A stretch of DNA of 50,189 bases from an uncultured Candidatus Saccharibacteria bacterium (GCA_964419595.1 CAYQQI010000001.1:1-50189), one strand, 5' to 3'; positions 262 to 32,084 are shown, numbered from the stretch's first letter. The notes: generated from the letters alone by a model not told the origin. Numbers and translations: made by a program.

Positions 262-290
262 AAAAAACCCCGGCGAGTGGCCGGGGTTTT
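262..290. terminator. intrinsic terminator hairpin (A-run / CCCCGGC-loop-GCCGGGG / T-run)
   Basis: A 7-bp GC stem (268-274 pairs with 280-286) is flanked by A6 and T4. It lies directly at the stop of the minus-strand CDS 289..507. Confidence 0.6.
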
Positions 291-507
291 AGCTACCGCC
301 GCCGTCTCCTCCTCCGCCATCACCTCCACCGTCTCCCGCTGAGAGGGAATCGAGCCAGCTTCCACTGTTATCCGGAGTGTCCGGCACTTTTGTGCTGTCG
401 TTGGCTGCACCCGCACCGCCTATAAGCGCAGCGCTGCCGGCAGAACCGTCATCACTCTTGCGGCCCTTTGCATCTTTCTTTGATCTTAAAAAGTCGAAGA
501 AACCCAT
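289..507 (-). CDS. hypothetical small protein with Gly/Asp-rich C-terminal tail
   Basis: Trimmed from ORF 289..540 to the ATG at 507. It reads MGFFDFLRSKKDAKGRK...SGSWLDSLSAGDGGGDGGGGDGGGS, and the terminator hairpin overlaps the stop. Confidence 0.45.
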   Translation of the reverse strand: MGFFDFLRSKKDAKGRKSDDGSAGSAALIGGAGAANDSTKVPDTPDNSGSWLDSLSAGDGGGDGGGGDGGGS

Positions 508-5096: not shown

Positions 5097-5459
5097 ATGA
5101 CAGCGGAAAAGACGGCTAAGAAGCGCGCCCCGCGCGCAAAGAAGGGTGAGGGAACTCATCGCCTTCGCATTCGTGTACGTGCATACGAGCACGGCGTTTT
5201 GGACAAGTCCGTCAAACAGATCATCGACACCGCGGCCCGCTATAATGCGACCGTTGTCGGCCCCGTTCCGCTCCCCATCGACATCCGAAAATACACCGTC
5301 AATCGCTCCTCTTTCATTGATAAAGACTCCCGCGAACAGTTCGAAATGCGCATTCACAAGCGCATGATCGACATCCTGAATCCCGAGGCAAAGGTCATTG
5401 AGGCGCTCACCAATATCGATTTGCCCTCCGGTGTATCAATCGACGTCAAAATGATGTAG
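5097..5459 (+). CDS. rpsJ: 30S ribosomal protein S10 (uS10)
   Basis: RLRIRVRAYEHGVLDKSVKQIIDTAARYNATVVGPVPLP...REQFEMRIHKRMIDI is a canonical S10 core. There is a short basic N-terminal extension. Confidence 0.97.
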   Translation: MTAEKTAKKRAPRAKKGEGTHRLRIRVRAYEHGVLDKSVKQIIDTAARYNATVVGPVPLPIDIRKYTVNRSSFIDKDSREQFEMRIHKRMIDILNPEAKVIEALTNIDLPSGVSIDVKMM

Positions 5460-5521: not shown

Positions 5522-6613
5522 TTACTCGCCCCGCGATCGTGCCGCTTTGAGCGCCTCCAGGCATTCGTTCCTCTCCTCTGCAGACACTTTCGTACACAGT
5601 GTTCCGGCTTCAATACCCTTTCCGTAATTAATGTATTTTTCAAGCATTCCTGAAACGCAGGATACGCGGTCAAGACGGTCGGAGAGTCCAAGACAAAGCC
5701 GCTCCACCTGCGCGTAGTCCTCAAGATTTTCCTGTATGACCGCACCGTCGTTCCCGAGGCCGTTGAAACAATACGACCGCGCCAAACCGCTGAGCGTTCC
5801 GCACGCCCGGGCGCCTTCCTCGCGTATGTATTCAGGCGACACAGCTGATGTTTCGTTCAGATGCAGGCCGGTCAAAAAAGCGAAACAGGCGCGTTGATAC
5901 GGCGCTGCATATGTTGAACAGGGGTAGAGGTAGTCGTTTGCATCGGTATGAACAGAGGGTTCGTGAAATTTGACCGATAGATCGGAACCGAAACTTTCCA
6001 TGAATACACCGCGAAAACAGCTATCACGACGCGTCCCGCTTGCCATCTTTTCGCAGACCGAAAGGCTTTTCGACACGTCCGAGGTCGCAAGGAACAGGAC
6101 GTGGCCGATGCCGTGGCACAATTGTCCGGATGCGTCGCAGTATTTGCTTCCCGCGCCACGAATTATTTCATCATCCGCATGCACCAGGTCTTCCGTAGCG
6201 GCAAGGCCGGGCGCAGAAGACATAGACTCGGCAATAACACCGTGCAAGCATCCTGAGCCGCATATCGGACTGCACGCGGCGAGCGCAGACTCAATGGAAC
6301 CCTCTTGTCGGGCGAGTGACTCTCCGATGATATGACCGATACTGTGACAATTCGACGCGAGCGCTCGCGCTGATGTGCTTGCGCTCGCATACGCCAATAT
6401 TTCCGCCGCGGAATGTGCCGGTAACAAATCGTGCAGCGTGCTCGTGAGGCACGAAGCATTCGGCGCGGCGTACGCTGATGGTGTCGCAAAACATCGAGAC
6501 AATGATCGGAGAGATCGTCCGTCCTTCATTTCAGTGTATCGAACGCCGCACACGACGATTGCCACACAAACAACCGCAGTGCCTATCAGCAGCAGGGAGC
6601 GGGACATCCTCAT
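5522..6613 (-). CDS. membrane-anchored Cys/His-rich repeat protein (paralog family, copy 1)
   Basis: Trimmed to MRMSRSLLLIGTAVVCVAIVVCGV (TM anchor). It has repeated motifs CHSIGHIIGE, CGSGCLHGV, CHGIGHVLF, SCFRGVF and YCFNGLG. Its ATG overlaps the stop of the upstream small ORF (ATGA). Confidence 0.75.
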   Translation of the reverse strand: MRMSRSLLLIGTAVVCVAIVVCGVRYTEMKDGRSLRSLSRCFATPSAYAAPNASCLTSTLHDLLPAHSAAEILAYASASTSARALASNCHSIGHIIGESLARQEGSIESALAACSPICGSGCLHGVIAESMSSAPGLAATEDLVHADDEIIRGAGSKYCDASGQLCHGIGHVLFLATSDVSKSLSVCEKMASGTRRDSCFRGVFMESFGSDLSVKFHEPSVHTDANDYLYPCSTYAAPYQRACFAFLTGLHLNETSAVSPEYIREEGARACGTLSGLARSYCFNGLGNDGAVIQENLEDYAQVERLCLGLSDRLDRVSCVSGMLEKYINYGKGIEAGTLCTKVSAEERNECLEALKAARSRGE

Positions 6614-6810
6614 GGCCTGCCATCTGTACGGTGTTTGTACTCCCGCAGCAGGTGGATGATGACCGCGATAAACACGATCACCCACAGGATTTGCCACATC
6701 ATCTTGATCAGAGTGAGATGCTCCGATAGGAATACCTGCATGGGTAGGAGGTGTGCCGGTGCATTTCCGGTGAGCGCTTTCAGTGCAATGATCGGCGTCG
6801 ATGTATTCAT
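6610..6810 (-). CDS. small single-pass membrane protein coupled to the HTTM gene (copy 1)
   Basis: MNTSTPIIALKALTGNAPAHLLPMQ...WQILWVIVFIAVIIHLL is homologous by eye to 25404..25592 (MNTPLLILKDLQGNDPVSLTPLQ...). It occupies the same position downstream of an HTTM-like gene. Confidence 0.65.
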   Translation of the reverse strand: MNTSTPIIALKALTGNAPAHLLPMQVFLSEHLTLIKMMWQILWVIVFIAVIIHLLREYKHRTDGRP

Positions 6811-6819
6811 ACGGAGATA

Positions 6820-8244
6820 TTAGTCGCGGTACTTATTTTCTACAGGGTATCCGACGAGCGGTGCTTCGGGGGGTAATTTAATCCACTCGTTATGTACGAA
6901 CGGCATGTATTCAAGAGCGCACATATCAGGTTCGTTGATCATACGGTAAAACGGTCCGCCGTTGACCGAGTGCTCGAATACGAGTGCCACTTTTTGGACG
7001 CCTTCCAATGCGCACGCATGTTGTATCCTTGTCCACCAGTCATACGGATCGCAGCGATAGAGCGACGAGCCTGATTCATACGTTGTCTCGCGGATACGCA
7101 CCCCACCCTGCGTCGTCGTCTTTGATTGAACGACGCAGTATAAGTCTGTGCATGGTGTCCCGGCCTCGACTTCCATATCGGCTTGATACTGGATCGTGTC
7201 GGTGAGCGGGTCCGAATACACTTTCTGAGAAATTATGCACTGGTGATTTGCCTCAAACATGAACATGCCGTAGCGGTTGCCTTCGAGCGTCATGATGCGC
7301 TCCTCCGCGGGCACGACGAATCCGAGTATTTGAAATGCGCAAATGAATGCGACGATCGCCCAACCCGCGATGGCGCGAAGCGCAAACGGCGTCGGAGTGT
7401 AGCGGTAGAACAGTCCGAAGAGGATCAGCAGTGGAGGAAGCGCCACGCTCGGATACATGTAGTACACAAACAAGCCCGAGTACAGGTGAAAGACGGTGAA
7501 AAACACCAGTGCGATGCGTTGTCGAATTCGATACTTCGAAAGCAGGAACCAGCACCCTACGATTTGAGAGAATATGACGAGGTTGGTAAAGAGCGGGGTA
7601 ACCATCTTCGGTATGAGCGGAAGTCCGTTTTGTAATGAGGTAAAGTACGTTCCAAGGATCCATGTCGAGTCGAGCTTGATGGTCGCGGATACGAAGTAAC
7701 ACACGACGAAAACGATCTTCAAAAAGTATTCCTTGAACGGGACAAAAAGCAGGACCGCCGTCAGGTACAAATGGTAGTAGAAGTACGGCGCATTGATCGA
7801 ATAGGAGAACATAAAGACGACGAGCGCTTCCCACAGAAAAAGAGCGGTCATGAGTGCGTGTGCACGCGTCCACCATTGCTTCCACATGCACCACACGATC
7901 AGATACATCATCGCGTAGAGCACCATATAGAAAATACTCTTGCCGTAGTTCTCTGTCATCCCCGGCAGGAAAAAGAAGTCGGTACAATTCTGGAAATGTG
8001 GCCAGCAATTGGCGGTGCCGCGCGCTACACTCTGAGTCGTTGCGACTGACGTCTTAAGCCACTCGTCGAATACCAGCAAGAAAAACAGGAGCGATGCACC
8101 GAAATACCATTGCAGTGTTTTATTCTCGCGTATTTCTCCGATCGAGAAGACACGCTCGTATGTCATTGCCGCAGTCGCAAACATTCCTTTCATGAAGCGG
8201 GTTACGGACGACCCCGACTCTCTCAACATTGCGCCAGTATACAT
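6820..8244 (-). CDS. HTTM / vitamin K-dependent gamma-carboxylase-like polytopic membrane protein (copy 1)
   Basis: A multi-TM N-terminal half contains SATIKLDSTWILGTYF. It is followed by YGMFMFEANHQC and a soluble C-terminal domain (ALVFEHSVNGGPFYRMINEP) that recalls the VKGC lumenal region. The ORF-track start at 8331 is GTG. I trimmed to the ATG at 8244 (MYTGAM) by alignment with the paralog; 8229 and 8193 are also possible. Confidence 0.6.
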   Translation of the reverse strand: MYTGAMLRESGSSVTRFMKGMFATAAMTYERVFSIGEIRENKTLQWYFGASLLFFLLVFDEWLKTSVATTQSVARGTANCWPHFQNCTDFFFLPGMTENYGKSIFYMVLYAMMYLIVWCMWKQWWTRAHALMTALFLWEALVVFMFSYSINAPYFYYHLYLTAVLLFVPFKEYFLKIVFVVCYFVSATIKLDSTWILGTYFTSLQNGLPLIPKMVTPLFTNLVIFSQIVGCWFLLSKYRIRQRIALVFFTVFHLYSGLFVYYMYPSVALPPLLILFGLFYRYTPTPFALRAIAGWAIVAFICAFQILGFVVPAEERIMTLEGNRYGMFMFEANHQCIISQKVYSDPLTDTIQYQADMEVEAGTPCTDLYCVVQSKTTTQGGVRIRETTYESGSSLYRCDPYDWWTRIQHACALEGVQKVALVFEHSVNGGPFYRMINEPDMCALEYMPFVHNEWIKLPPEAPLVGYPVENKYRD

Positions 8245-8300
8245 GTGAATGTTGCTTCGTTTGAAGTCCTCAAATACCCCTCGTGCTAAACTCGATTGCA

Positions 8301-9668
8301 ATGTGGACGAAGATACAGGACGTGTGTGCACGAGTCACCTTGGAAAAAAGATACTGGCGCTCGGACATATTCTGGACGCAGTCACTATTTTTCAACACAG
8401 CAATCAAGTTCATCCCATTCTGGATGGATTGCTGGGCGCTAAAAAAGAGCCAATATTGGCCCTATTCGCAGATCGCTGCTTTGCGTGAGCGAAAACTGAG
8501 AATGCTCTTGCAAGGCGCTTCGACGCTTCCGTTCTGGAAGCAGTATTTCGAAAAGGGCGGGATCGATCCCGGTCGCGCAACAGTTTCGGAACTGGAGCGA
8601 ATACCAGTGACCGACCGGCGGGATTTTTCGGACCTGCAAAGTGCCGAATACATCATCGCATCTCTCCTACCGCGTTCATTTGCAGATCAGACATCGGGCT
8701 CCACAGGCAGCCCCTTTCGCTTCTATCACGACAGAGGAATCGTGTTGCGTTCCTTTGCTGTACGAGAGCGTATGTTCCGAACTGCGGCAAAGGGGATGAG
8801 GTACCAAATAGTATCAATGCGCGCTAAGGAGCGGATCGGAATGGCCTTTTTTAAGCATTACTTCTTTTACATACGAGGCTCAAACAGCATCAGGCATCGT
8901 CTCCCGCATCTCGTTGATGTCGTGAACAAACTGTATCGCGAAGGAATCGTGCTGTACGCAATTGCCTCCTGGGTCATGACGCTTGCCAGAGAAGTTGAGC
9001 GGGCGGGAGTAACGATCCCGTTTCAGGCCGTGATCTCAACGGGAGAATCGATGCTACCAAAGGAGCGCACGTACGTAGAGAAAGCACTGCAGACCAAGCT
9101 TTTTCTCGTGTATGCATCTCAAGAAGGGAATTGCATGGCATTTGAATGCGAGCATCAACGGTTTCATATCAACGAAGAAGAGATCTATTTTCAGATCGTG
9201 GATTCCTCCGGGGCTTCGCTCCCGTACGGAGCCGTAGGAAAAGTGGTTTTTACATTGCTGGACAATCGTGTCATGCCGTTCATTCGATACTCCAACGGAG
9301 ATATCGGCTCTATCTCTGACGAACAATGTCCGTGCGGACGAAGGCTTCGTACAATAACCCTTCTCGGAAGGGAGAAAGACCTTATACAGCTACCGGAAGG
9401 CAGGGAAATTGTGTTGATGGACTTGGCACCGATCTTCGACTACTACTTCGACGCTATACAGCAGTACCAGATAGTTCAGAAAAGTACGAAGCATTTTCTC
9501 ATACGTGTTATCGTGACCGCTCAATTCGAAGCGAAACAGGAACGGCTCACCGCCCGCCTCATGCGTGTCCTACACCCTGCGGTTAGGATCGACTGGGAAG
9601 TAGTAACTCATATACCGCATAGCGAAAGCGGTAAGGCCATATATTTCGTGCGAGAGAGTATCGAGTGA
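8301..9668 (+). CDS. PaaK / coenzyme F390 synthetase-like adenylate-forming enzyme (copy 1)
   Basis: DQTSGSTGSPFRFY is a P-loop-like AMP-binding motif. IRYSNGDIGS..CPCGR and the overall length fit the PaaK family. The start is uncertain (GTG 8283, ATG 8301 or ATG 8424). Confidence 0.7.
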   Translation: MWTKIQDVCARVTLEKRYWRSDIFWTQSLFFNTAIKFIPFWMDCWALKKSQYWPYSQIAALRERKLRMLLQGASTLPFWKQYFEKGGIDPGRATVSELERIPVTDRRDFSDLQSAEYIIASLLPRSFADQTSGSTGSPFRFYHDRGIVLRSFAVRERMFRTAAKGMRYQIVSMRAKERIGMAFFKHYFFYIRGSNSIRHRLPHLVDVVNKLYREGIVLYAIASWVMTLAREVERAGVTIPFQAVISTGESMLPKERTYVEKALQTKLFLVYASQEGNCMAFECEHQRFHINEEEIYFQIVDSSGASLPYGAVGKVVFTLLDNRVMPFIRYSNGDIGSISDEQCPCGRRLRTITLLGREKDLIQLPEGREIVLMDLAPIFDYYFDAIQQYQIVQKSTKHFLIRVIVTAQFEAKQERLTARLMRVLHPAVRIDWEVVTHIPHSESGKAIYFVRESIE

Positions 9669-9671: not shown

Positions 9672-10556
9672 TTAGTATTTTGAATCTACCGAAAGCTGTT
9701 TCTCGAATTCTACGACCGGCAGACGATAGATCTGATCTTTCCCGTATTGCGCTCTCACACCCCCCTTCGCTACCTTGGTAAGTGACAAGATCTTCTCATA
9801 TCCGTGGTACTTGGGTCGCGGTTTTAAAAGCGGGAATTCCCACTGAAAAACGAGTCGTTTCAACGTGTAGACACTGGTTCGCTGCCTGAAGACGTCCGGA
9901 TGCTGCAGCGCGAATTTGTTCGCCGGCAACCGCAGATACGACAGGCAGAGCTCGGGCGTGCTGAACATAAAATACGGAACATGTCCCTGCGTGTTGCGCT
10001 CGATCCAGTCAAACGGGACCTTGTACCCCGCATTAAATTCAAGGAATATATCATCGGGCGCGAGAGTAACTTTTTCGCGGTCGATATCGTAGTATTGTTC
10101 GCCGCCCGCGATGACCGCGATGCCCCCCAAACTCTCAGCGATCTCCATCAATTTGATCTGCAGGTACCGTATCAGGTAAAAGGACACGAATCCTTTTTGG
10201 AGATACGCGGGGATCTCGTTCCGGAAAAAATTCTCCATGTCGACCGAGACGATCTTCTGGTGCACGCCGTGTTTCCTGCACCAGTTTCGCGCGTACGCTA
10301 TGTCGTGCTCGTTGGTACCGCTCGCGTGCCGCAGGGTGAGAACAGAGAAATTAATACCCTGGTCAAAGAATGCATGACACATAACCTCGCTATCAATGCC
10401 ACCCGAGGAACAAAGCCACAGTGGTCTGTCTGCACGGGAGGCGATAGCGAGCGCGGAGGCACGCATCTCCTCTTTCCAGCTTGCGGGCTTTCGCGTGCAC
10501 GGGCGAAATCGGGTGCAGAATGATGAGTCGGTACGCTTGAATTCGATCGCCGGCAT
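9672..10556 (-). CDS. PP-loop ATP pyrophosphatase superfamily protein (adenine-nucleotide alpha-hydrolase fold)
   Basis: LWLCSSGGIDSEV is an SGGxDS PP-loop motif near the N-terminus. ATG 10556 was chosen; GTG 10565 is an alternative. Confidence 0.7.
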   Translation of the reverse strand: MPAIEFKRTDSSFCTRFRPCTRKPASWKEEMRASALAIASRADRPLWLCSSGGIDSEVMCHAFFDQGINFSVLTLRHASGTNEHDIAYARNWCRKHGVHQKIVSVDMENFFRNEIPAYLQKGFVSFYLIRYLQIKLMEIAESLGGIAVIAGGEQYYDIDREKVTLAPDDIFLEFNAGYKVPFDWIERNTQGHVPYFMFSTPELCLSYLRLPANKFALQHPDVFRQRTSVYTLKRLVFQWEFPLLKPRPKYHGYEKILSLTKVAKGGVRAQYGKDQIYRLPVVEFEKQLSVDSKY

Positions 10557-10564
10557 GGCCACCA

Positions 10565-11872
10565 CTATACCGCACCGGATTCATCGAGAACGATCTTGGA
10601 TTTACCCCGAGGCAGTCGGGGGATAGATGCTACGGCTGCGAGAATGACATTAACTTCCGGTCCCATGAGCGCTTGAATCTTTTCGCGTATTTGGCCCTCG
10701 ACGAGCGTATTGAATGCCGGGGTCGGTATGATTCTCACCTCGAGCTCAGTATCCGATCCCTTGACGATCAGATATCGGAAAATGAACGGCGAGAACATTT
10801 GCATAAGTTCACTGAACTCAAATTGGTGGAACCTTCTCGGACCGAATGTGAGCATGGCCGAGTATCGCCCGGTGATCCACACTCGCTGCGACTGAAGCCC
10901 GCATGCACATTTCTCCCACGAAACATGCCCGCGATCCCCGGTATCGTAGCGAACGAACGGCATTTCGTAGTTGTACAGGTCGGTGATCACGATCTTGCCG
11001 CTCATTCCCTCAGGCACAGGATCACCGCTGCTATCGACTATCTCTACAATGCACGACTCTACGTACACGTGGAACCCGTCATGCGCACTACAATCCATAC
11101 CGATCGTACCGAGCTCCTCCAGACCGTAGCGATTGTAGACAGTGCAGTGCAATTGTTCTTCGATCAGTTGACGCGCGGCAGGGTAGAGCCGCTCACTTCC
11201 TGACACGGCGTACTTTGGTCGCGGTCCTGTACCGCTCTTTTGCACTTCGAGCGCGAGCTCTTCAAGGAATGACGCATGGCCCTCGATCACATACGGCCGG
11301 AACGCGATAAGCTCTTCGATGGCCGCTTTCGGGTCCGTGAACAGTTGGTCGGCAAATATAACCAAAGCATTCTCTCTCACGAGCGGCAACACGCGAAGGT
11401 ACGCAACACGTGCCCATGTGGTACTCATATGCCAAAGCCGCTCCTCCATAAGGAATCGGTACTGCATAAAGTCCACGTACAGGGGCATTCCTGTCGTGAT
11501 AAGTCGTCGGAGCGCAGTAAAAGGCATTCCGCTCGTGCCGGAGGTTGTGACCCACTTACCGACCGGCGGGAATGTCGAGATCGTATATTCGGATACCGAT
11601 CGACCCCGGAAGGTATCTTTATTCGTGACCGGGAGTTTTGCGAGGTCGTCGATCGTGACAATACCCGGAGAGCCGACGCCACGTGTTTGTAGGGTATTTC
11701 TGAACAGGATGATGTTCTTCTCCAGTACCGCAACTAATTCCCGCAGTTTTTTCTCCTGCCATCTTACAATGTAGGCACGATCCTTTTTATAAACGTTCCT
11801 AAAACGGTAAAAATTGTAGAAGTAACGTAGCTTTTGTCGAACAGTAAGACGTTTCAGATAGTTCAGAGCCAT
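10565..11872 (-). CDS. PaaK / F390 synthetase-like adenylate-forming enzyme (copy 2)
   Basis: VTTSGTSGMPFTAL, VRYDTGDRG and CACG motifs are present. It aligns by eye with 8301..9668. Confidence 0.75.
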   Translation of the reverse strand: MALNYLKRLTVRQKLRYFYNFYRFRNVYKKDRAYIVRWQEKKLRELVAVLEKNIILFRNTLQTRGVGSPGIVTIDDLAKLPVTNKDTFRGRSVSEYTISTFPPVGKWVTTSGTSGMPFTALRRLITTGMPLYVDFMQYRFLMEERLWHMSTTWARVAYLRVLPLVRENALVIFADQLFTDPKAAIEELIAFRPYVIEGHASFLEELALEVQKSGTGPRPKYAVSGSERLYPAARQLIEEQLHCTVYNRYGLEELGTIGMDCSAHDGFHVYVESCIVEIVDSSGDPVPEGMSGKIVITDLYNYEMPFVRYDTGDRGHVSWEKCACGLQSQRVWITGRYSAMLTFGPRRFHQFEFSELMQMFSPFIFRYLIVKGSDTELEVRIIPTPAFNTLVEGQIREKIQALMGPEVNVILAAVASIPRLPRGKSKIVLDESGAV

Positions 11873-11881: not shown

Positions 11882-13516
11882 TTATGCAGGTCGCTTTAAG
11901 CAATAGAGCTCGTTCGCGACCGTACGCGCAAAGATGCAGTGCGACGCTTCGTTGTAGGCAATTTTACTCATGATGCGCTCACTTGCCTGGAAGTATCCCA
12001 CCTGTGTCCCGTGTTCCGCACTCACCTCATACAGACATCCGTCATTCGAACCGATAAAAACGGACGGTCCCACGACGACAGGGGAGCCGAATATGCGCCC
12101 GCGGGTAAGAAACTGCCAGCGAAGCTTTGAGGAGCCGATATCTATTGCGTACAGTGTCTTATCGAGCGAGGCCACGTAGACCGTGTCGTTGTGCACGAGC
12201 GGTATGGAGTAGAGCGCCGCGCCCGTCTCATACGCGTAAATAGGCATGCCGTCGCGTGCACCGAATGCGTAGAGTTTTCCGTCCATCGACGTGAAGAACA
12301 CGATCCTCTGTTTCGCAGCATAGGCCGGCGCAACTTTAAGATCTCCTTGAGTGGCGTTTCGCCAGCGCAATGCACCGGTGATGGCATCGTAGGCATAACT
12401 GATACCGTCGTTACTACCGATCGCGACCATGCTTTCCTCTTTTATATAGAGCGGTGAGCCGTGCGTCATAGCCGCGGTTGTGTGTTGCCAGCGCATGCGG
12501 CCCGACAGCATGTCGAGCGCGACGATGCCGCCTTGCTTACGGAAGAGTCCGAATTCTAATCCGATGAACAGCAATCCGAGTTCGGGTGCCAGTGAAGGAG
12601 ATGAACCGATCCAGTCCGCATCATCGTAGCGCCACTTTTCCTTGCCTGTCCTGGAATCCAGTGCGTAGACGACTCCGTCGTACGCACCGAAATACAACAC
12701 ACCGTTGTGTATCGCAGGCGTTGAAAGAATACCTTTCCCGTCGGAGTGCTTTCCCACGTTGAACTCCCACACGACGTCACCCGTTTTCTGATCGAGTGCT
12801 CGCATGGTGCCGTCGTCACATCCGAGGAACACAAGTGAGTCGTCAATGACAGGTGCGGATTTCTGAACCACAAGGTGATAGCTCGGGTTCGGACCGGTAT
12901 AGCGCCATACGAGTTGAAGTTGAACGTTCGTTTCGATTTTTTTCTCCTGCAGGAGCGGTATACCGAAATCTTCAAGGGTGAATATGTGTCTGATCGAGGC
13001 GCCCCTGGTGCTCAATCGTTGGTAAGACTCAGGCTCACGGAATGCGAGTAGGACGAATACGTCGGTGACCGAACAGCCGGCGTCGGAAAGAATAGTCATC
13101 TGCTTCTCGAGGGTGGATCCGCTGTTGATGAGGTCATCGACGAGGACAATCGGCTCATCGGTAAGAGTACCCTCTATCTGTTTCATCAATCCGTGTCGTT
13201 TACGCGATTTTCGTATGAAAAAACCGTTGATAGGCGTTCCGCGTTCCGCTCCTTTCATCACGATAGCCGCGATGAGCGAGATGCCCGCGGTTTCCATTGC
13301 GCCCACTTGGAACGGGAGTTTGTCCGCGTATTGTTCCCAAAATATCTCTGCGTAACGGTTCAGCCATTTTGCCTGCAGCATGAGGGCGCGGAAATCAAAG
13401 AGCCACTCCTCGCGTTTGCCCGTCACCTCCGAACCTACGATCACGGCACCCTCTGAGCGCTGCACGAATGCGGTTGATTCGATTGCGCGTCGCAGGTCCT
13501 CGTATCCGTTCGTCAT
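11882..13516 (-). CDS. type I phosphoribosyltransferase (OPRT-like) fused to a PQQ-like beta-propeller repeat domain (copy 1)
   Basis: The N-terminus has LFDFRALML, GISLIAAIV, FFIRKSRKRHG and the PRPP loop IVLVDDLINSGSTL. The C-terminal ~350 aa has repeated ...G.VYFG..DG.LYALD..TG...W modules. Confidence 0.75.
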   Translation of the reverse strand: MTNGYEDLRRAIESTAFVQRSEGAVIVGSEVTGKREEWLFDFRALMLQAKWLNRYAEIFWEQYADKLPFQVGAMETAGISLIAAIVMKGAERGTPINGFFIRKSRKRHGLMKQIEGTLTDEPIVLVDDLINSGSTLEKQMTILSDAGCSVTDVFVLLAFREPESYQRLSTRGASIRHIFTLEDFGIPLLQEKKIETNVQLQLVWRYTGPNPSYHLVVQKSAPVIDDSLVFLGCDDGTMRALDQKTGDVVWEFNVGKHSDGKGILSTPAIHNGVLYFGAYDGVVYALDSRTGKEKWRYDDADWIGSSPSLAPELGLLFIGLEFGLFRKQGGIVALDMLSGRMRWQHTTAAMTHGSPLYIKEESMVAIGSNDGISYAYDAITGALRWRNATQGDLKVAPAYAAKQRIVFFTSMDGKLYAFGARDGMPIYAYETGAALYSIPLVHNDTVYVASLDKTLYAIDIGSSKLRWQFLTRGRIFGSPVVVGPSVFIGSNDGCLYEVSAEHGTQVGYFQASERIMSKIAYNEASHCIFARTVANELYCLKRPA

Positions 13517-13581: not shown

Positions 13582-14859
13582 TTAATAGCTGTATCTGCCG
13601 CTCTTCCGAATGGCGGGGAGTTCCTGCGTATACTGAGCGAATTTAGAGATGCACAACTCCTTCGCGTCAGCATGCATGCATGCATTCTCTGAGGGGGCGA
13701 CATCAAGTCCGTCGTAAGAAAAGAACGAGTAGAAACAGGAATCCTGAAGCGTTTCGGAGCGTATTGCTGTGCAGTATGTAAGTGCTGTGCCCGGTCGTCC
13801 GTAACTTCTCAGTATCCGAACGTGACCGTGGGCACAACTCTCTCTATCGGTCTCATTCGGTAGCTCTGCGCATATGCTCACAAGTCCTTCGGTTGTGGTG
13901 CCGGTCTGTTCCACGTAAAAAGGGAGGAATCTTCCAATGCCCTCGAAGCAATACGCTCGCTCCGGCATACCGAATGTCTCGCATGCTTGAGTCGCGATGC
14001 GCAATTTCTCCGCACGCTCTGTAATATTCTTTCTTGCGAACAATATCTCTTGGTAGGGGGGGAGGTACTTGAAGCACGGATGCCGGTACCGTTTTTCATC
14101 AGGGGCGATCGTATTACAGGGATACCCGTAATCATCGTCAGGAACGTCTGCCAATGACGGAACGGACTCACTCAATACCAAACTATTTGGCACGCCGCCG
14201 ATGCCTTGCATATAGACGCCGGTCACGCATTGGTCAAGCATTTCACCGGTCGCAATCGACCCGCAGCTTTGCGTGGCCGCTTTAAAGTTGCCGGTCAAAG
14301 AATAGAGAATGTGACCGATACCGTGACAGAGCTCCGTATTGGCAATACCCAGGCAGAATTTCCCCGCGACCGCCTCGATCTGTTCCGTATCCATATGCGC
14401 GATATCGACCTCGTCGACGCGTATACCGAGCCGCTCTACCATGACTTCGCCCAAAGCTCCGTGTAAACAACCGCCAAAGCATTGGTTGCTGCAGCGGGAC
14501 AGTGCGTGCTCGAGGTTCGGATCAACACGATATGTTTCCTGCCCGATAACATGTGCAACGCTGTGACAGTCACCATAGGGCTTCGGCATGGACCTCGAAC
14601 TTACGTCGTTCAACAGTTCGCTCGCGGTGCGATTTTCGAGCGCAGACCGGACGATTTCATGTGTGCAGGCGATGAGTTCTGATGAGCCCTGCGAGTCCTC
14701 TGCACAGCTTTGCAATCCGGTCGTAAAGTTTCGTTCCATGCCTCGAGCACGGTATGAGTCCAGCTCTCCGATACAGAGGATGGCGAACGATACCAGCAGG
14801 CACGCGATGAATATCCGGACCGGGATGCTCCACGCACGAGGATGAAGGGGGAGACTCAT
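13582..14859 (-). CDS. membrane-anchored Cys/His-rich repeat protein (copy 2)
   Basis: The TM anchor is VRIFIACLLVSFAILCIG. Motifs include CHSVAHVIGQ, CFGGCLHGA, CHGIGHILY, QCVTGVYMQ and YCFEGIG. ATG 14859 was chosen; GTG 14865 is an alternative. Confidence 0.75.
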   Translation of the reverse strand: MSLPLHPRAWSIPVRIFIACLLVSFAILCIGELDSYRARGMERNFTTGLQSCAEDSQGSSELIACTHEIVRSALENRTASELLNDVSSRSMPKPYGDCHSVAHVIGQETYRVDPNLEHALSRCSNQCFGGCLHGALGEVMVERLGIRVDEVDIAHMDTEQIEAVAGKFCLGIANTELCHGIGHILYSLTGNFKAATQSCGSIATGEMLDQCVTGVYMQGIGGVPNSLVLSESVPSLADVPDDDYGYPCNTIAPDEKRYRHPCFKYLPPYQEILFARKNITERAEKLRIATQACETFGMPERAYCFEGIGRFLPFYVEQTGTTTEGLVSICAELPNETDRESCAHGHVRILRSYGRPGTALTYCTAIRSETLQDSCFYSFFSYDGLDVAPSENACMHADAKELCISKFAQYTQELPAIRKSGRYSY

Positions 14860-14870
14860 ACACACCGATG

Positions 14871-15617
14871 TTAATCCTCAGCAACGTTCCCGGCATGAAT
14901 CGATGTGTCCTTACAAAGCGTTATCGTGTGAATCGATTGTTCGTTCTCCTCGTCGAGATCAAGGAGTTCCGCAATGACCGCATCGTCGAATCCGGCATAG
15001 GGGCGAACATTCAACCGGAGCGCACTTCCCACCAGCAGCATGTTTTCACTCATGTGTCCGGCCTCAAGCAGCGTATGGATATAGGACAACTCACCGTACT
15101 TTGCAGATGAGCGCTTCCATACGCCGGTGAAAACGATCAGCCCGGACAGTGACAACCACTCCGGGTGTCTGGCGATACTTTTCATGTCGAATTGCGGCGG
15201 GAGGTCCCACAAGCGCTCGAGCGCGTGTTTCGAGGGATTATAGTGGAACACCGCAGGACTTTGCGATTCCACCGCGTTTGATATCAGGTATGACTCAACC
15301 GGATAGAGTGCTCCGCCGGAAGGATAGTTTCTATTCGTCACACCGTCGCGTTTTCGAAGTGCAGAGCCGAAGAGTGTGCCGAGTTCCCGAAGTGAGATAG
15401 CGATGCCGGCATCGCCTTCGTGTCCGGAGATCCGGCTATCCAGTGCCTCCTGAAGTGTTGTTGTGAGTACATCCGGCTGCGGGAGCGAGATGCATTGCAT
15501 ACGAGGATATGCTTTGTGGACCCCTCGCGGGACCTCTTCCGGTCGGTGGGTTGCACCTTTTCTGGTGAGGCGAGTGCGCCGCAACTCCATATGCAAGCGG
15601 GATAAAAAAGAGCTCAT
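14871..15617 (-). CDS. SagB-type dehydrogenase (nitroreductase fold), pair 1
   Basis: YPSGGALYPVESYL, FHYNPSKHALERLW, SAKYGELSY (Lys-Tyr motif) and LLEAGHMSENMLL are present. Its ATG overlaps the YcaO stop (ATGA at 15617..15614). Confidence 0.85.
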   Translation of the reverse strand: MSSFLSRLHMELRRTRLTRKGATHRPEEVPRGVHKAYPRMQCISLPQPDVLTTTLQEALDSRISGHEGDAGIAISLRELGTLFGSALRKRDGVTNRNYPSGGALYPVESYLISNAVESQSPAVFHYNPSKHALERLWDLPPQFDMKSIARHPEWLSLSGLIVFTGVWKRSSAKYGELSYIHTLLEAGHMSENMLLVGSALRLNVRPYAGFDDAVIAELLDLDEENEQSIHTITLCKDTSIHAGNVAED

Positions 15618-17053
15618 GAGAACGGGTGCGGACTCTCCGCGAACGGTTCTTTCCGTGGCGTATAACCCAGCGCTCGCGGCACCTCGTGCCAGCGCTCTCC
15701 GCCGAATTGCCGGCTGGCTTCGTTGAGGTACGTTGGAACCATCTCCGGCACAATGACCATTTCAATATGAAGATCCGTCGGGTTTTTCGCAGAATGGGTC
15801 AGGGGGACCGAAACAACATTGAAATGCTTCGTGCGACACCACTGCACGATGCGTTCAAGATTCTCCTCTATCGTATCGTTTTCCCACTCTTTCGCTTCGA
15901 CCTCTATCTCCGGACCCTGCACCAGAAATTCAAGACGCTTGGCGTTCTCAGGTTCTCCCCAGTAGTACAGACGCTCCCGGTGTCCGATCGTCTCGATTGG
16001 TGTGGTCGTATCCCATGATTTTCCTTCATTCTCCCAGATGTGGTAGCTGCGAAACGCACGTATAGATTCGCACATCGCTTTCTCTATTGCAGTCGGCAGT
16101 GAGCGGTGAGCACGGATACCAAAACTAAACCGCGGACTCTTCCCGCTCATGTCCTCGAGTACGACTGCTACCGCGTGCGTCGGTGCGTCGGTTTGAAGCC
16201 GGATGACATGCGGTTTCAGTCTGTATCGTTCGCACTGTGACACTGCCCGGCCAAGTGACGGGTTCAACCTTCTCAGCGTATCGAGTGCAATGCGGGGAAG
16301 CGTGAGTTGATTCAGCCACATGATCATATAGGCTTCTCGTTCGATCACTTCCAGGATGCCGGCAAGCCGCGCGCCGCACTGCGTTGGCCACGTAGCCAGA
16401 CCGTTTGTATTTTGTTGCCGAATGATCGGTTCATTCGGTGCACACATGTGACGCCGACTGATACCGCTCACAATTTGGGCAGGAACGAATGTGTTTTCGC
16501 TGTGCGTGAGCGAAATGCCTTGGACCCACAGATACGCTGCGTCGGGTCGCAATATTCGTGCAGCGTGCCTCGTTCGCTGCGCTTCCGTGAAACCGGTGAT
16601 ATTTTCCGGGGCGATGGATGGGCCTATGGCCGTAATTTCCCGGTACGTGGCAATTGTCGGGTTTACGAAATAGTCGTTCTGCGTCATCCAAATGTAGCGC
16701 TCGAGTGCCTCCGAAGTAGCGGCATACAACGCGTTCTCGTCACTTTCCCAGGTCGTGCCTCCGGTCTGGTGTGCGGTATGTTCATTGCACAGGGCATACC
16801 AGGCTTTCGTCGGCGGCTCGTCCGGGGCGCGGTATACCCGTCCGAATTCCGAAATTACCCCGTGGTCTTTGAGAAGCTGTGCGCGCTGAAGGGGCTCCAG
16901 TAGGTCGGACCGACCGTAGGGAATGGTGCGGGAGTCCTTTACTACCCGCACGTCCAATCTTTTCTCTATATGGTCCGTAAAAGCCCGCAGGGCTCTTTCT
17001 TTAATATTCGAGCCGTTGAGTAGTTCAGTGAACCGTACGGCATCAAAAATCAT
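15614..17053 (-). CDS. YcaO-family cyclodehydratase-like protein, pair 1
   Basis: Trimmed to MIFDAVRF. SEALERYIW, TNGLATWPT and LEVIEREAYMIMWLN are YcaO hallmarks. The C-terminus is ...ESPHPFS. Confidence 0.85.
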   Translation of the reverse strand: MIFDAVRFTELLNGSNIKERALRAFTDHIEKRLDVRVVKDSRTIPYGRSDLLEPLQRAQLLKDHGVISEFGRVYRAPDEPPTKAWYALCNEHTAHQTGGTTWESDENALYAATSEALERYIWMTQNDYFVNPTIATYREITAIGPSIAPENITGFTEAQRTRHAARILRPDAAYLWVQGISLTHSENTFVPAQIVSGISRRHMCAPNEPIIRQQNTNGLATWPTQCGARLAGILEVIEREAYMIMWLNQLTLPRIALDTLRRLNPSLGRAVSQCERYRLKPHVIRLQTDAPTHAVAVVLEDMSGKSPRFSFGIRAHRSLPTAIEKAMCESIRAFRSYHIWENEGKSWDTTTPIETIGHRERLYYWGEPENAKRLEFLVQGPEIEVEAKEWENDTIEENLERIVQWCRTKHFNVVSVPLTHSAKNPTDLHIEMVIVPEMVPTYLNEASRQFGGERWHEVPRALGYTPRKEPFAESPHPFS

Positions 17054-17166
17054 TGGTGAATCATAGCAAAACACGAGTTCTTTCCACAAGCCGAGGCAAG
17101 TTATCCCACGTGCCGTGGGGCGCACTATATAAATGCGGTGGTATCATTTACCTCATATTTTCCTCT

Positions 17167-25593: not shown

Positions 25594-26901
25594 TCAGGAC
25601 GAGAACGGATTCGCAAAATAATTTTGAACCGGATACCCGATGATCTCAGGACCGTCGGCAGGCAATTTTATCCACCGATTGTGCGAAAACGGTTCGTAGG
25701 AGAGCACGCACGCGTTTGCAGTATCAACGATACGATAGAACGGACCGCCGTCTATAGAATGGTCAAACGTCCATTCGACTCGTTCGATCACGGGATGCCG
25801 CATGCACGCTTCGTGAATATGGTACCAAAATTCGTACGGATCGCACCGCTCTTGTGCGGCAGGAGACTCGATCGTATCGGCTATCACGGAGCCGTCGCGC
25901 ATATGGGTCCGGGTATTCGACACACACTGGTGGTTCGCTTCGAACATGAACAGACCGTACATATTTCCCTCGAGTGTCATACGATGATCGCCCGGTATCA
26001 ACAGGGGGATACTTTGCGGGATCAAGAGCACAGCGAGAAACGTCCATCCCGCCACAGACTTGCGATCGAGCGGCACCGCGCTGTACCGGTATCCGACAGC
26101 GAACAGAACGACGAGTGCGGTGAGTGCGATAGAAGGAAAACGGAAGCCGACAAAGATACCCGAATAGAGGTGAAATGTCGCGAAAAAGACGAGTGCGCCG
26201 AGACGGAGTCGATTGTCAGAAGAAAGGAGGAACCACGAACCGATCATCTGCATGAATATCACGACGCCCGTAAATATCGGCGCCACGCTGTTTCCGAATA
26301 TCGGCAATCCCGCGGAGAGGGAGGTAAAATATGTTCCCATGATCCAACCTGCATCGATCTTCACGCTGCTTGCGAGGAAGTAGAGCCACACGAACGTGAT
26401 CCGAAGGAAAGCGAGCTTGTGCGGGAACAAAAGCAGCACCGAACCGAGGTACAGGTCGTAGTAGCTGTAATTTTCGGCGAAGTGCATGGAGAACAGAAAT
26501 ACGGTCGCCGCTTTGCATATCCATAAGAGGAGCAGTAATACATGCGCAAGCACCCACTCTTTTTTATACATGAGCACCGCAACCAAGAGGCACAACAGAA
26601 AGATCCCCATCGAGAGTATCTGTTGGCTGTAGGCATCGGGGAATGTCCCGAGGACATAGAATTTCCAGCAGCTCTGAAAATACGGCCAGCACAGGTGAAC
26701 ATTTTCCGTGACGGCACGGGGCGACGTTATGGCAAACAATGCGAATCGCTGAAAACCGAGAAAGAACGAGAAAAGAATGACGCCGAAGACGATCTTAAGC
26801 GTTTCGTTCTGCTCGATCTCAGCGATCGAAAAGAAACGTCGGTACCATTCGAGCACGCGACGCTCGATCACTGACGTAAATATATGATGACGAAACGGCA
26901 T
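25594..26901 (-). CDS. HTTM / vitamin K-dependent gamma-carboxylase-like membrane protein (copy 2)
   Basis: ASSVKIDAGWIMGTYF, YGLFMFEANHQC and WTFDHSIDGGPFYRIVD are present. It is collinear with 6820..8244. Confidence 0.6.
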   Translation of the reverse strand: MPFRHHIFTSVIERRVLEWYRRFFSIAEIEQNETLKIVFGVILFSFFLGFQRFALFAITSPRAVTENVHLCWPYFQSCWKFYVLGTFPDAYSQQILSMGIFLLCLLVAVLMYKKEWVLAHVLLLLLWICKAATVFLFSMHFAENYSYYDLYLGSVLLLFPHKLAFLRITFVWLYFLASSVKIDAGWIMGTYFTSLSAGLPIFGNSVAPIFTGVVIFMQMIGSWFLLSSDNRLRLGALVFFATFHLYSGIFVGFRFPSIALTALVVLFAVGYRYSAVPLDRKSVAGWTFLAVLLIPQSIPLLIPGDHRMTLEGNMYGLFMFEANHQCVSNTRTHMRDGSVIADTIESPAAQERCDPYEFWYHIHEACMRHPVIERVEWTFDHSIDGGPFYRIVDTANACVLSYEPFSHNRWIKLPADGPEIIGYPVQNYFANPFSS

Positions 26902-28400: not shown

Positions 28401-28506
28401 GCGCGCATGCACCGCATTCTTCCAATATCGATTCGGTTCCACGCGTGAAAGTATAGCAATATCGCTCGCTTGCGCCCGCAAAGGGGGAGAGTACCATTGA
28501 GCTTCC

Positions 28507-29235
28507 ATGGATTTTTCCGAGTTCTTCCACATCTCCTCAAAGGACGCCACGGGTGCGGGTGAACTTCGGATACCGCTTGATCCCAAAGAGTGGCCCGAAT
28601 CATGGAGCACGATAGAAACGAAAACATATACGCGTTTGCCGAAGATCTCTCTTCCCGAGACCGACCCGAAAGCGGACCACTTTGCGCTCATTCGTGATCG
28701 CAGATCCCGCTTTGCGTTCACGAGCGAACCGTTGACGCTAGAGGCAATGAGCACGTTGCTCAGGTATTCATGCGGTCTCTTTTTTCAAGACGATGTAGCC
28801 ACACACAGGGCGCAACCCTCCGCGGGCTCGAGGTATCCGATCGAACTCTATCCGATCGTACTTCGCGGGAACGATGCGCTCGCGTCCGGCGTGTACCATT
28901 ACAACGTTGATCATCATCGTCTTGAGCTGCTCTGGAGCCGCACATTTTCGCCGGAAGAGAAGCGGGCACTCGTAACGCACGAGAATATCGACGACGCCGC
29001 GTGTCTGCTCGTGATGAGTGCCACCTTCGATCGAACGAAACGTAAATACGGCGAGCGAGGATACCGATACATCATGCTTGAGGCGGGACATATCGGGCAG
29101 AATGTATGTTTGGCGGCAACCCACCTCAACCTCTCGTGCTGTCCGCTGGGAAATACACGCGACGGCGCTATTGAGACACTGCTGGATATCGACGGTGTGA
29201 ACGAGTCCGTGGTCTACGCAACGCTGATCGGGTAA
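28507..29235 (+). CDS. SagB-type dehydrogenase, pair 3
   Basis: GSRYPIELYPIVL, YHYNVDHHRLELLW, KRKYGERGYRYIMLEAGHIGQN and CCPLG are present. Confidence 0.8.
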   Translation: MDFSEFFHISSKDATGAGELRIPLDPKEWPESWSTIETKTYTRLPKISLPETDPKADHFALIRDRRSRFAFTSEPLTLEAMSTLLRYSCGLFFQDDVATHRAQPSAGSRYPIELYPIVLRGNDALASGVYHYNVDHHRLELLWSRTFSPEEKRALVTHENIDDAACLLVMSATFDRTKRKYGERGYRYIMLEAGHIGQNVCLAATHLNLSCCPLGNTRDGAIETLLDIDGVNESVVYATLIG

Positions 29236-32077: not shown

Positions 32078-32084
32078 TTCTCAT

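Follow-up and report, generated by a model that had tools for sequence, protein, structure and literature searches.

A GGCX-fold membrane protein and its small single-pass partner in a YcaO/SagB gene cluster of an uncultured Candidatus Saccharibacteria bacterium

In Bacillus subtilis, the HTTM-superfamily protein SdpB is encoded beside ribosomal peptide toxin genes and has no known reaction. The bacterial carboxylase homolog MloH carboxylates an Asp-derived unit during malonomycin biosynthesis in Streptomyces. Linaridin HTTM proteins of the CrdG type are encoded beside RiPP genes, also without a known reaction (PMC9927463). The original prediction for the DNA described here named SdpB as its only peptide-linked HTTM example, which has to be amended since MloH and the linaridin proteins also exist. 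A complex has been predicted between a Firmicute HTTM-DCC1 protein and its DUF5819 partner (preprint 10.64898/2026.08.19.745780). Roles of the human GGCX residues that are compared below have been described (10.1101/2025.02.09.637231; PMC12647623). In the present work two paralogous membrane proteins, X_A and X_B, and their small partners, sm_A and sm_B, were analysed in a window of 50,189 nucleotides, which is the whole stretch of DNA studied. They sit in a cluster conserved among tiny symbiotic bacteria, and X may modify the acidic, glycine-rich exported peptides that are encoded there.

Fold, family and conserved residues of X_A and X_B

X_A (6820..8244, minus strand) has 474 aa, with a possible upstream GTG start at 8331, and carries a 34-aa insertion in its outer domain. 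X_B (25594..26901, minus strand) has 435 aa. The two proteins share 40% identity over 448 columns (BLASTP, E 2e-117). Three motifs had been quoted for a pair of HTTM-like paralogs at these positions, and all of them were found in both proteins, as SATIKLDSTWILGTYF, YGMFMFEANHQC and FEHSVNGGPFYRMI in X_A and as ASSVKIDAGWIMGTYF, YGLFMFEANHQC and FDHSIDGGPFYRIV in X_B. On the family tree, X_A falls within the large YcaO-associated clade. The 474-aa product, as well as the 66-aa and 363-aa products of the genes that follow it, also appears in public gene calls from other assemblies of the same organism.

Neither paralog was recognised by Pfam and NCBIfam. The expected hit to the HTTM profile PF05090 did not materialise: no match was obtained for X_A and X_B even at E ≤ 10, nor for 35 relatives at E ≤ 1, although human GGCX, the positive control, matched the same profile in the same library at 1.4e-118. 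A profile search against PDB sequences gave no match for X. Because PF05090 gives no match, the family assignment is based on the fold and on profile alignment. The AlphaFold model of X_B reached a pLDDT of 88.5 and a pTM of 0.89. When this model was compared with the PDB using Foldseek, ranks 1-15 were all human GGCX (E 9e-8 to 3e-5, probability 1.0, TM-score on the query 0.51-0.62), and the first match beyond GGCX, at rank 16, had an E of 0.4. The resemblance to GGCX that had been proposed was thus upheld by predicted structure; only the vitamin-K-dependent gamma-carboxylase was matched, and no assignment to an unrelated transporter or acyltransferase was obtained.

A collinear alignment over 414 columns (E 2.6e-4) was produced by hhalign between a profile of 130 X sequences and human GGCX. 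X residues 285-412 were placed by hhalign on GGCX 363-503, the span of PF22777 (VKGC_lumenal_dom). Weak matches to that profile were detected in 4 of 35 relatives, none of them reaching the curated cut-off (27.7 bits); the lowest E was 0.0013, and the match of relative P0248 had an E of 0.0077 (16.6 bits). The order of parts is the same in X and GGCX, namely a multi-helix membrane domain, a cap after the catalytic Lys and a first lumenal lobe (the PF22777 region). X is very probably a GGCX-fold homolog, a strongly diverged relative within the superfamily of vitamin-K-dependent carboxylases (HTTM plus lumenal-domain).

The motifs of the original prediction correspond to defined parts of GGCX: K181 (X_B numbering is used throughout) is placed on K218, YG..MF on the 395-402 loop, and FDHSINGGPF on lumenal-domain residues 470-480. 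Further pairs given by hhalign are C71-C99, W186-W223, position 218 with D263, F243-H244 with F286-H287, M319-M401, C366-C450 and W410-W501. Like K218 and W223 of GGCX, K181 and W186 belong to a K-(L/I)-D-x-x-W motif; they are kept in 127 and 125 of the 130 sequences, respectively. Position 218 is occupied by Glu in 88 and by Gln in 36 of the 130. Conservation is similar for F243 (124/130), H244 (125/130) and M319 (119/130); the quinone-pocket equivalences (D263, F286, M401) are read from the sequence alignment. C71 (124/130) and C366 (128/130) are aligned to the C99-C450 disulfide of GGCX, which links the lumenal helix with the first outer loop, and may form a corresponding one in X, as judged from sequence. 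Altogether six outward-facing Cys are conserved (104-128 of 130 sequences), and no CxxC motif was found in X.

Where GGCX has H160, in the Glu/CO2 pocket, 122 of 130 X sequences have Phe or Tyr and none has His, and the N159 equivalent is kept in just 79 of 130. GGCX F299 is aligned to Val within a gapped, unreliable stretch, and the alignment leaves a two-residue uncertainty as to which residue corresponds to Y395. The quinol-site residues are conserved in X, while the Glu/CO2 half-site is not. The C terminus of X lies at about GGCX residue 505; taking the domain limits from the literature, it follows that X lacks both PBD-2, the propeptide-binding lobe, and the Arch domain.

The small partner and the gene cluster

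Direct reading of the DNA confirmed that a small ORF of 62-66 aa starts 1-9 nt past each paralog and that it is followed by an ATGA-coupled gene. The X_A stop is separated by 9 nt from the ATG of sm_A (6610..6810, minus strand, 66 aa), whose TGA overlaps the ATG of the first f6Cys paralog (5522..6613, minus strand, 363 aa; ATGA at 6613). Likewise, the X_B stop is 1 nt away from the ATG of sm_B (25404..25592, minus strand, 62 aa), whose TGA overlaps the ATG of TM200 (24880..25407, minus strand; ATGA at 25407). TM200 is a four-helix membrane protein of 175 aa, with GCAACG within a helix and a C-terminal CPI. The two single-pass partners are related to each other (pairwise E 6e-7).

A local HMM located sm alongside X in 78 of 83 sources, so that the small ORF is conserved elsewhere, as had been anticipated. 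Since public data contain 713 clusters of the X family (50% identity) and sm accompanies it in nearly all of these sources, the pairing is not due to chance. Some lineages encode fusions: sm forms the C-terminal end of X in several loci, and of 113 full-length representatives at least 25 have this arrangement; alphaproteobacterial loci have sm joined to the N terminus of X, and in three loci (L002, L003 and L022) the sm domain is fused to f6Cys. The protein consists of 60-70 aa, with one helix and a 30-residue outer segment. Charge counts place the N terminus outside and the C terminus inside, as in sm_A, a topology that fits both kinds of fusion to X. It matched no described family, apart from one weak sub-threshold match to DUF7427. 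sm is the obligate partner of X, and most probably a subunit of the X enzyme.

The cluster is bordered on the left by rpsJ (S10; 5097..5459, plus strand) and on the right by rplC (L3; 36414..37142). Its three SagD-like YcaO cyclodehydratases, all on the minus strand, are YcaO 1 (23363..24799), YcaO 2 (26907..28754) and YcaO 3 (15614..17125). They match Pfam YcaO with E 3e-41 to 7.5e-50, the latter for YcaO 2, whose true start is probably further downstream; TIGR03604 is their best NCBIfam match, at 165-178 bits and under its cut-off of 219. No family was matched by their N-terminal extensions of 100-235 residues. The three SagB-type dehydrogenases score 105-133 bits with TIGR03605, above the cut-off of 78.4. 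These are copy 1 (22626..23588, minus strand, 105 bits, start uncertain), copy 2 (28507..29235, plus strand, 133 bits) and copy 3 (14871..15617, minus strand). X_B lies between two YcaO genes, in one operon with the order YcaO 2, X_B, sm_B, TM200 and with gaps of 5 nt and 1 nt and then an overlap.

f6Cys is a membrane-anchored, Cys/His-rich alpha-solenoid, with further paralogs at 13582..14865 (minus strand) and 20686..22026 (plus strand, start uncertain). Membrane-anchored TPR proteins are encoded on the plus strand at 19185..20015, 20012..20800 and 33869..34669. In CPR loci, no neighbour accompanies X as constantly as a PRTase-beta-propeller fusion, which has an OPRT-like N-terminal domain, a PQQ-like propeller and no membrane helix; it is present at 11882..13516 and at 29621..31348 (ATG start probably 31273), both on the minus strand. 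Two PaaK/F390-synthetase-like adenylating enzymes (8283..9668, plus strand; 10565..11872, minus strand) and a PP-loop-like ATPase (9672..10565, minus strand) recur in just 5-9 related loci. The secreted Cys/Pro-rich protein f7 (34689..35951, plus strand) and the secreted f13, with a C-terminal anchor (35955..36383, plus strand), are the final cluster genes ahead of rplC.

The YcaO/SagB setting that had been described holds for this window and does not extend to the family as a whole, in which YcaO is facultative; it occurs in about half of the Paceibacteria-type X loci and in no proteobacterial locus. In 16 proteobacterial or Bdellovibrionota-like loci, X/sm was found with none of the other cluster genes, precursors and YcaO included. 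The core role would therefore be independent of the precursors, unless these genomes carry substrate genes at another place.

Candidate precursors and possible roles of X/sm

Two candidate precursor genes were identified on the plus strand, A at 17167..17478 and B at 31793..32077. Precursor A (103 aa) has a K/R-rich N terminus, a membrane helix, the motif VAHAE-AP and a Gly/Ser/Cys/Asp core (ACTGDAAGCGSGGDSGSGGCSGSDSGGSSGASCGSSGDDGGGG); precursor B (94 aa) has a membrane helix, the motif CANAD-AP and the core VVDTGCTGDAGCAGCAGSDSGCSGGCDSGGGGSSDGCA, likewise rich in Gly, Asp, Ser and Cys. Each precedes a gene for the membrane-anchored, all-helical protein f3, namely f3a (17498..18610, plus strand; the start may be 17459) and f3b (32085..33185, plus strand), the latter starting 8 nt past the precursor B stop. 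Both precursor genes were unannotated and previously unnoticed; A is absent from ORF lists because a longer f3 ORF call overlaps it.

Motifs of this type were found in 37 ORFs from 32 sources, all directly upstream of an f3 gene, and f3 always follows a precursor gene. The layout comprises an N-terminal membrane helix, an AHA(D/E)(A/V)P-type motif at a median of 20 residues past the helix, and a core of 26-98 residues made of Gly, Asp, Glu, Ser and Cys. Charge counts indicate an N-in/C-out topology, and the cores have a median net charge of -8. In the two precursors of the window, the core has a C+S+T fraction of 0.35-0.36. This fraction is 0.30 in YcaO loci against 0.18 in loci without YcaO (p 0.002), a link that is partly one of clade versus clade, with the main contrast between two large clades. 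By parsimony, some 15 changes on the tree of X are needed to account for the presence of YcaO. The quinone-dependent modification of exported precursors proposed in the original prediction becomes more concrete, as a proposal, because candidate exported precursors were found.

Our tentative preference is for X/sm as a two-subunit, outward-facing, quinol-using membrane enzyme that modifies exported precursor peptides. X and sm would form this enzyme in the cytoplasmic membrane, with the catalytic side of X facing outward. The membrane-embedded K181 could deprotonate a membrane quinol, as in GGCX, and the quinol would react with O2 to give a strong base able to deprotonate a substrate positioned at the surface of the membrane. 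In Paceibacteria-type clusters the substrates would be the exported precursors, whose cores lie outside the cell. YcaO and SagB, where present, would turn Cys and Ser into azol(in)es in the cytoplasm. After export the peptide may be held by the membrane-anchored alpha-solenoids (f6Cys, f3, TPR), replacing the propeptide-binding lobe that X lacks, and X/sm would then act on the acidic core. That its targets are the locally encoded exported peptides is plausible, if somewhat short of probable. Asp/Glu carboxylation, for which MloH offers a precedent, would be the leading candidate for the chemistry, but it is rather doubtful, given that of the half-site residues H160 is never kept and N159 only in part of the sequences. 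A lack of quinone biosynthesis is generally reported for Patescibacteria, many of which are anaerobes; a quinol/O2 enzyme would consequently need scavenged quinone and oxygen.

Loss of the Glu/CO2-site residues with retention of the quinol site would also fit a quinol oxidiser without carboxylation, an epoxidase or a thiol-quinone oxidoreductase used outside the membrane for oxidative folding or for sulfur chemistry. A Leptospira carboxylase ortholog reportedly has epoxidase activity and no carboxylase activity. The clients of such a VKOR/DsbB-like enzyme would be the Cys-rich exported f6Cys and f7 and the Cys-bearing precursors, and the six outward-facing Cys of X are in line with this role. 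The window encodes possible co-workers, a membrane-anchored DsbA-like thioredoxin-fold protein with a CPHC motif (33187..33864, plus strand) and a membrane-anchored rhodanese (31338..31766, plus strand, start read from translation; local HMM E 1e-59, Pfam Rhodanese E 1e-13). Genes of these two types and for DCC1-like thiol-disulfide oxidoreductases occur in 12 sources each, the DCC1-like gene adjoining the PRTase gene in several loci, and HTTM-DCC1 fusions are known (preprint 10.64898/2026.08.19.745780). They are companions of X in only a minority of loci, however, and X-bearing Proteobacteria normally have their own DsbB. X itself is without CxxC, and its Cys may all be structural, given that the C99-C450 disulfide with which C71 and C366 are aligned has a structural role. 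We consider this function quite unlikely.

It is unlikely as well that X/sm is a non-redox factor which matures, docks or processes membrane-tethered peptides, the kind of function assumed for SdpB and for HTTM proteins of the linaridin clusters. Such a factor might release the core at the AHA(D/E)-(A/V)P junction or hand the peptide over to the solenoids. SdpB belongs to a peptide-maturation cluster and has no known reaction. The linaridin proteins offer the same picture (PMC9927463). The motif at the leader-core junction is strongly conserved (37/37 precursors) and too distant from the helix for an ordinary signal-peptidase I site, and the cluster contains no dedicated protease gene except a serine-hydrolase-like one (22051..22599). 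Nevertheless, no protease-type catalytic set is evident in X, the near-invariant Lys-Trp pair and the quinone-pocket residues are hard to account for without quinone chemistry, and X/sm is present also where such precursors are not nearby. This last distribution, with X/sm as the sole component common to all lineages, could instead reflect a housekeeping envelope role, e.g. the modification of a lipid, lipoprotein or surface polymer, unrelated to ribosomal peptides and merely co-located in a conserved island. X/sm stands alone between rpoC and rpsL in Alphaproteobacteria, the CPR island is set among core genes of high expression, with rpsJ and rplC at its flanks, and the carrier lineages are mostly host-dependent or predatory bacteria. 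Such a role is improbable in view of the gaps of 1-5 nt and the ATGA overlaps, which suggest translational coupling with YcaO/SagB, the recurrence of the order YcaO, SagB, X, sm, PRTase in L027, L039 and L044, the fusion of sm to f6Cys, and the precursors found alongside in 22 of 31 long CPR loci.

Comparison with known systems

Human GGCX is the only significant structural match of X, and equivalents of its K218, W223, D263 (Glu/Gln in X), F286-H287, M401, C99-C450 and W501 are present. Identity is 16-18%, and X is shorter (435-474 aa against 758), with Phe/Tyr in place of H160 and without PBD-2 and the Arch domain. X has four additional conserved Cys and needs a separate single-pass partner; its proposed substrates would carry a membrane-helix leader, whereas those of GGCX have a soluble propeptide. 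MloH, likened by description, belongs to a natural-product pathway and has an acidic, Asp-derived unit as its target; an acidic target is proposed for X too. Its substrate is a polyketide/non-ribosomal peptide intermediate, and no small partner protein has been reported for it.

The HTTM-DCC1/DUF5819 pair resembles X/sm in its two adjacent genes, one of them for a single-pass membrane protein, and in the DCC1-type association. There the lumenal domain is supplied by the partner, DUF5819, while in X it is built in. Unlike X, SdpB and the linaridin proteins are recognised by the Pfam HTTM profile, and we found no report for them of a lumenal domain, a small partner or Gly/Asp-rich precursors.

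With TOMM-type RiPP clusters, such as those of microcin B17 and streptolysin S, this cluster shares pairs of YcaO and SagB, the YcaO proteins being SagD-like by a best match under the TIGR03604 cut-off; a SagB-family FMN dehydrogenase and Cys/Ser/Thr-rich precursor cores are both present in the window. The cores are rich in Gly, Ser and Cys, a composition that we take to be close to that of microcin B17. Unlike in the TOMM type, YcaO and SagB are dispensable add-ons, missing from roughly every second locus. A membrane helix is part of the leader, the strongly acidic core lies outside the cell, and the cluster is conserved phylum-wide and sits inside a ribosomal protein operon.

The paralogous membrane proteins and their predicted fold

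The two membrane proteins X_A (6820..8244, minus strand, 474 aa) and X_B (25594..26901, minus strand, 435 aa) were found to be clear paralogs, with 40% identity (E 2e-117). The three sequence motifs quoted in the original prediction were all located in this pair. Behind each gene lies a small ORF, sm_A (6610..6810, minus strand, 66 aa) and sm_B (25404..25592, minus strand, 62 aa). The spacing of 1-9 nt given in the original prediction was confirmed on the DNA, being 9 nt for X_A and 1 nt for X_B, and in both small ORFs the stop codon overlaps the following start codon in an ATGA. Products of 474, 66 and 363 aa are also present in public gene calls from other assemblies of the same organism. 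In the family tree the two copies belong to separate clades, and so the window contains two old modules and no recent duplication.

In order to identify this family (X), profile and structure searches were carried out. The expected assignment to HTTM was not obtained by profiles: X gave no match in Pfam even at E ≤ 10, and likewise nothing in NCBIfam, while with that library the control, human gamma-glutamyl carboxylase (GGCX), matched PF05090 (HTTM; 1e-118) and PF22777 (4e-53). All PDB sequences were also searched with HMMER profiles of 43 and of 130 X members, without a match. The anticipated likeness to GGCX structures was borne out by the AlphaFold model of X_B, which was built with 43 homologs (pLDDT 88.5, pTM 0.89). 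In a Foldseek search of the PDB, the best 15 matches were all human GGCX (E 9e-8 to 3e-5, probability 1.0, TM-score 0.51-0.62), and the next match had an E of 0.4. The fold is the decisive evidence for what X is. In hhalign, a shallow profile of 43 sequences matched GGCX weakly (probability 4.8%), and the 130-sequence profile aligned collinearly with the human enzyme over 414 columns (E 2.6e-4), at a modest probability of 42%. The carboxylase lumenal-domain profile gave weak matches in a few X relatives. Among 35 divergent relatives (from P0121..P0270), two matched Pfam MauE (E 5e-7) and one matched DoxX weakly; the MauE-matching members were not among the 19 of 33 relatives scanned individually.

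The roles of the GGCX residues have been described (10.1101/2025.02.09.637231; PMC12647623), and conservation of their equivalents was counted in 130 X sequences (X_B numbering). Of the catalytic Lys and the Cys/His equivalents, singled out for checking in the original prediction, the following are retained: K181 (GGCX K218) in 127/130, F243-H244 (GGCX F286-H287) in 124/130 and 125/130, and C71 and C366, which align to the disulfide C99/C450, in 124/130 and 128/130. W186 (GGCX W223) was conserved in 125/130, Glu or Gln at position 218 (GGCX D263) in 124/130 and M319 (GGCX M401) in 119/130. At the position of GGCX H160, X has Phe or Tyr in 122 sequences and His in none of the 130, and N159 is retained in 79/130. 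F299 is paired with Val where the alignment is gapped, and the equivalent of Y395 is ambiguous. Judged from these alignments, the putative quinol half-site is conserved in X and the putative carboxylation half-site is not. X ends at approximately GGCX residue 505 and therefore has neither the second propeptide-binding lobe nor the Arch domain. It is best described as a divergent superfamily member that probably kept the quinol-activating site and has a different substrate site.

The small partner protein

An HMM made from 55 copies detected the small protein in 78 of the 83 sources, most commonly encoded directly after X. X carries it as a C-terminal fusion in L005, L026, L031, L072, L074, L075, L079 and L081, an arrangement also seen in at least 25 of the 113 full-length representatives, and as an N-terminal fusion in the alphaproteobacterial loci L062, L064, L065, L070 and L076. 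In L002, L003 and L022 the small protein is joined to the N terminus of a downstream f6Cys, a cysteine-rich cluster protein. The count of Lys and Arg residues was 0.33 ahead of its helix and 3.11 behind it, which indicates an N-out/C-in orientation. No other topology accommodates the fusions at both ends of X. The arrangement, the fusions and the topology together argue that the small protein is a subunit and not a substrate. A role as Glu substrate was considered separately and rejected, because the Glu is variable (LEGN, LAGN, LTGN, LQGN) and many lineages have the protein fused to the enzyme; its single acidic residue is not conserved.

Gene neighbourhood and candidate precursors

Grouped at 50% identity, family X comprises at least 713 clusters in public data, with hypothetical annotation only. 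It occurs mainly in Patescibacteria and also in Gracilibacteria-type, Micavibrio-like, Rickettsiales-like and Oligoflexia genomes. The complete genomes with X include CP066682.1 (Kaiserbacteria), OZ246423.1, OZ245819.1 and OZ244161.1 (Micavibrio). Neighbours were counted in 31 long Paceibacteria-type loci and, separately, in 16 proteobacterial-type loci. In the former, X was accompanied by the small protein and by a PRTase-propeller fusion (28/31 each), a TPR protein (25/31), f7 (23/31), a precursor (22/31), f3 (20/31), f6Cys (17/31), YcaO (16/31) and a SagB-type dehydrogenase (14/31). In the 16 proteobacterial-type loci the small protein was the only companion. The link to YcaO is therefore real yet optional: the proposed embedding of X in a YcaO cluster is tight in the window and does not extend to the family as a whole. 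In the window, YcaO2, X_B, sm_B and TM200 make up a single operon, separated by gaps of 5 nt and 1 nt and then an overlap, and the order YcaO, SagB, X, small protein, PRTase was seen again in other loci. The YcaO proteins of the window match a SagD-type model best, and the dehydrogenases exceed the SagB cut-off. The searchable literature yielded no relevant YcaO or HTTM system in Patescibacteria, and no description of the X family, its partner or the precursors.

The cluster is bordered by rpsJ (S10, 5097..5459) and rplC (L3, 36414..37142). These genes are normally neighbours, and the 31-kb cluster as a whole is inserted between them. Of the 31 long CPR loci, 13 have S10 and 11 have L3 within reach of X (e.g. 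L001, L002, L008, L015). In the Alphaproteobacteria L061, L065, L068 and L070, X and the small protein stand alone between rpoC and rpsL. Some X-bearing contigs (L016, L026, L074, L067) carry the labels Methanosarcinales archaeon, Sphingobacterium or Mesorhizobium; the genes on them resemble those of CPR or Gracilibacteria, and the bins may be contaminated or mislabelled.

In the fusions at 11882..13516 and 29621..31348, an orotate-PRTase-like domain is joined to a PQQ-type beta-propeller. They are cytoplasmic, without a membrane helix. Among the CPR neighbours of X they are the most constant (46/55 loci, mostly directly adjacent), and nothing obvious ties them to a peptide or quinone pathway. 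Three copies of f6Cys, with many invariant Cys and His, are found in the window. The model is a membrane-anchored alpha-solenoid (pLDDT 81); it was discarded as a guide to function, as it matches generic ARM/HEAT/TPR solenoids only (best E 0.017). The f3 and TPR proteins are likewise membrane-anchored with helical repeats. In the otherwise unassigned stretch between the first f3 gene (f3a) and the first TPR gene lies a 106-aa ORF (18733..19053, plus strand) with five cysteines and an N terminus resembling a signal peptide.

In many loci, an ORF of 75-135 aa was found immediately upstream of f3. In the window, these candidate precursors are A (17167..17478, plus strand) and B (31793..32077, plus strand). 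Both are masked by longer overlapping f3 ORF calls (17291..18610 and 31911..33185, plus strand), which start upstream of the true starts. Another misleading longest-ORF call, of 164 aa (31182..31676, minus strand), overlaps the real plus-strand rhodanese gene. The precursors have a Lys/Arg-rich N terminus, a single hydrophobic helix and, a median of 20 residues past it, the conserved motif x-H/S/Y/N-A-(D/E)-(A/V/T/I)-P. For the Gly/Asp/Glu/Ser/Cys-rich tail, or core, the median length is 41 residues and the median net charge -8, and charge counts place it outside the cell. Because of its distance from the helix, AHA(D/E) is unlikely to be an ordinary signal-peptidase I site. The Cys/Ser/Thr fraction of the core was 0.30 with YcaO versus 0.18 without (p 0.002), a contrast that is largely one of one clade versus another.

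A second precursor type (L015 5363..5629, L052 5297..5629, L055 8346..8660, L048 8453..8740) has the junction (V/A)SAD(T/V/A)P or (V/A)SADAG and cores of (SGD)n repeats, and lies between two f6Cys genes, not upstream of f3. A 72-aa ORF located 5 kb outside the cluster (289..507, minus strand) ends in SAGDGGGDGGGGDGGGS, a Gly/Asp tail resembling precursor cores, without membrane helix or AHA(D/E) motif.

Proposed function and comparison with known systems

The best-supported model is that X and the small protein form an outward-facing two-subunit GGCX-type enzyme modifying exported acidic peptides. A base would be generated by X with the help of a membrane quinol and K181. In these clusters, the X/small protein pair would act on the exported peptides, in which YcaO and SagB, where present, would already have formed azoles, and the solenoid proteins would stand in for the propeptide-binding lobe that X lacks. 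The leading candidate reaction is carboxylation of Asp/Glu, and the apparent lack of conservation of the Glu/CO2 pocket in the alignments argues against a strictly GGCX-like one. Alternatively, the pair might have a quinol-linked role in thiol chemistry or oxidative folding. The window encodes a DsbA-like protein and a membrane-anchored rhodanese; the latter, c15, had been considered as a VKOR/DsbB-like quinone reductase and was rejected as such. DCC1-like oxidoreductases, known partners of HTTM domains (10.64898/2026.08.19.745780), occur in 12 sources and are absent from the window. TM200 (24880..25407, 175 aa), a four-helix membrane protein translationally coupled to sm_B, carries an invariant GCAACG in one of its helices and, at the C terminus, a Cys-Pro/Ala motif. 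Present in 6 sources, it has no family in Pfam and only a chance-level match in NCBIfam. It too had been considered as a VKOR/DsbB-like quinone reductase, and it could be a redox partner.

A housekeeping envelope role unrelated to the peptides is a further rival. A non-redox processing or docking role may also be envisaged, by analogy with that assumed for SdpB. For the linaridin HTTM proteins, a role of this type is assumed as well (PMC9927463).

Returning to carboxylation, its most specific form would be a vitamin-K-carboxylase-type reaction at the outer face of Patescibacteria and some predatory or host-dependent Proteobacteria, converting Asp/Glu of membrane-tethered, Gly-rich ribosomal peptides into malonate-type (Gla-like) metal-binding residues; this we regard as rather unlikely. 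Patescibacteria are generally described as lacking quinones, and carboxylation would therefore imply a quinone scavenged from hosts. A quinol-dependent reaction would bear on quinone uptake from hosts by symbiotic CPR bacteria and on the pre-animal evolution of carboxylation chemistry.

The family represents a large blind spot, as at least 713 hypothetical-only clusters appear to share the fold and quinol-site residues of the blood-clotting carboxylation enzyme, in organisms with almost no envelope biochemistry assigned. The precursors are of a new kind: conserved phylum-wide, they combine a leader containing a membrane helix with a Gly-rich, strongly acidic core. The minimal set of parts (a 435-aa enzyme, a 62-aa partner, a precursor of about 100 aa and, optionally, YcaO and SagB) allows the activity of bacterial carboxylase homologs to be tested, a question standing since the HTTM domain was named. 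If carboxylation is true, no earlier example of such a system acting on ribosomal peptides would be known outside animals; for carboxylation by a carboxylase homolog, MloH provides a bacterial precedent.
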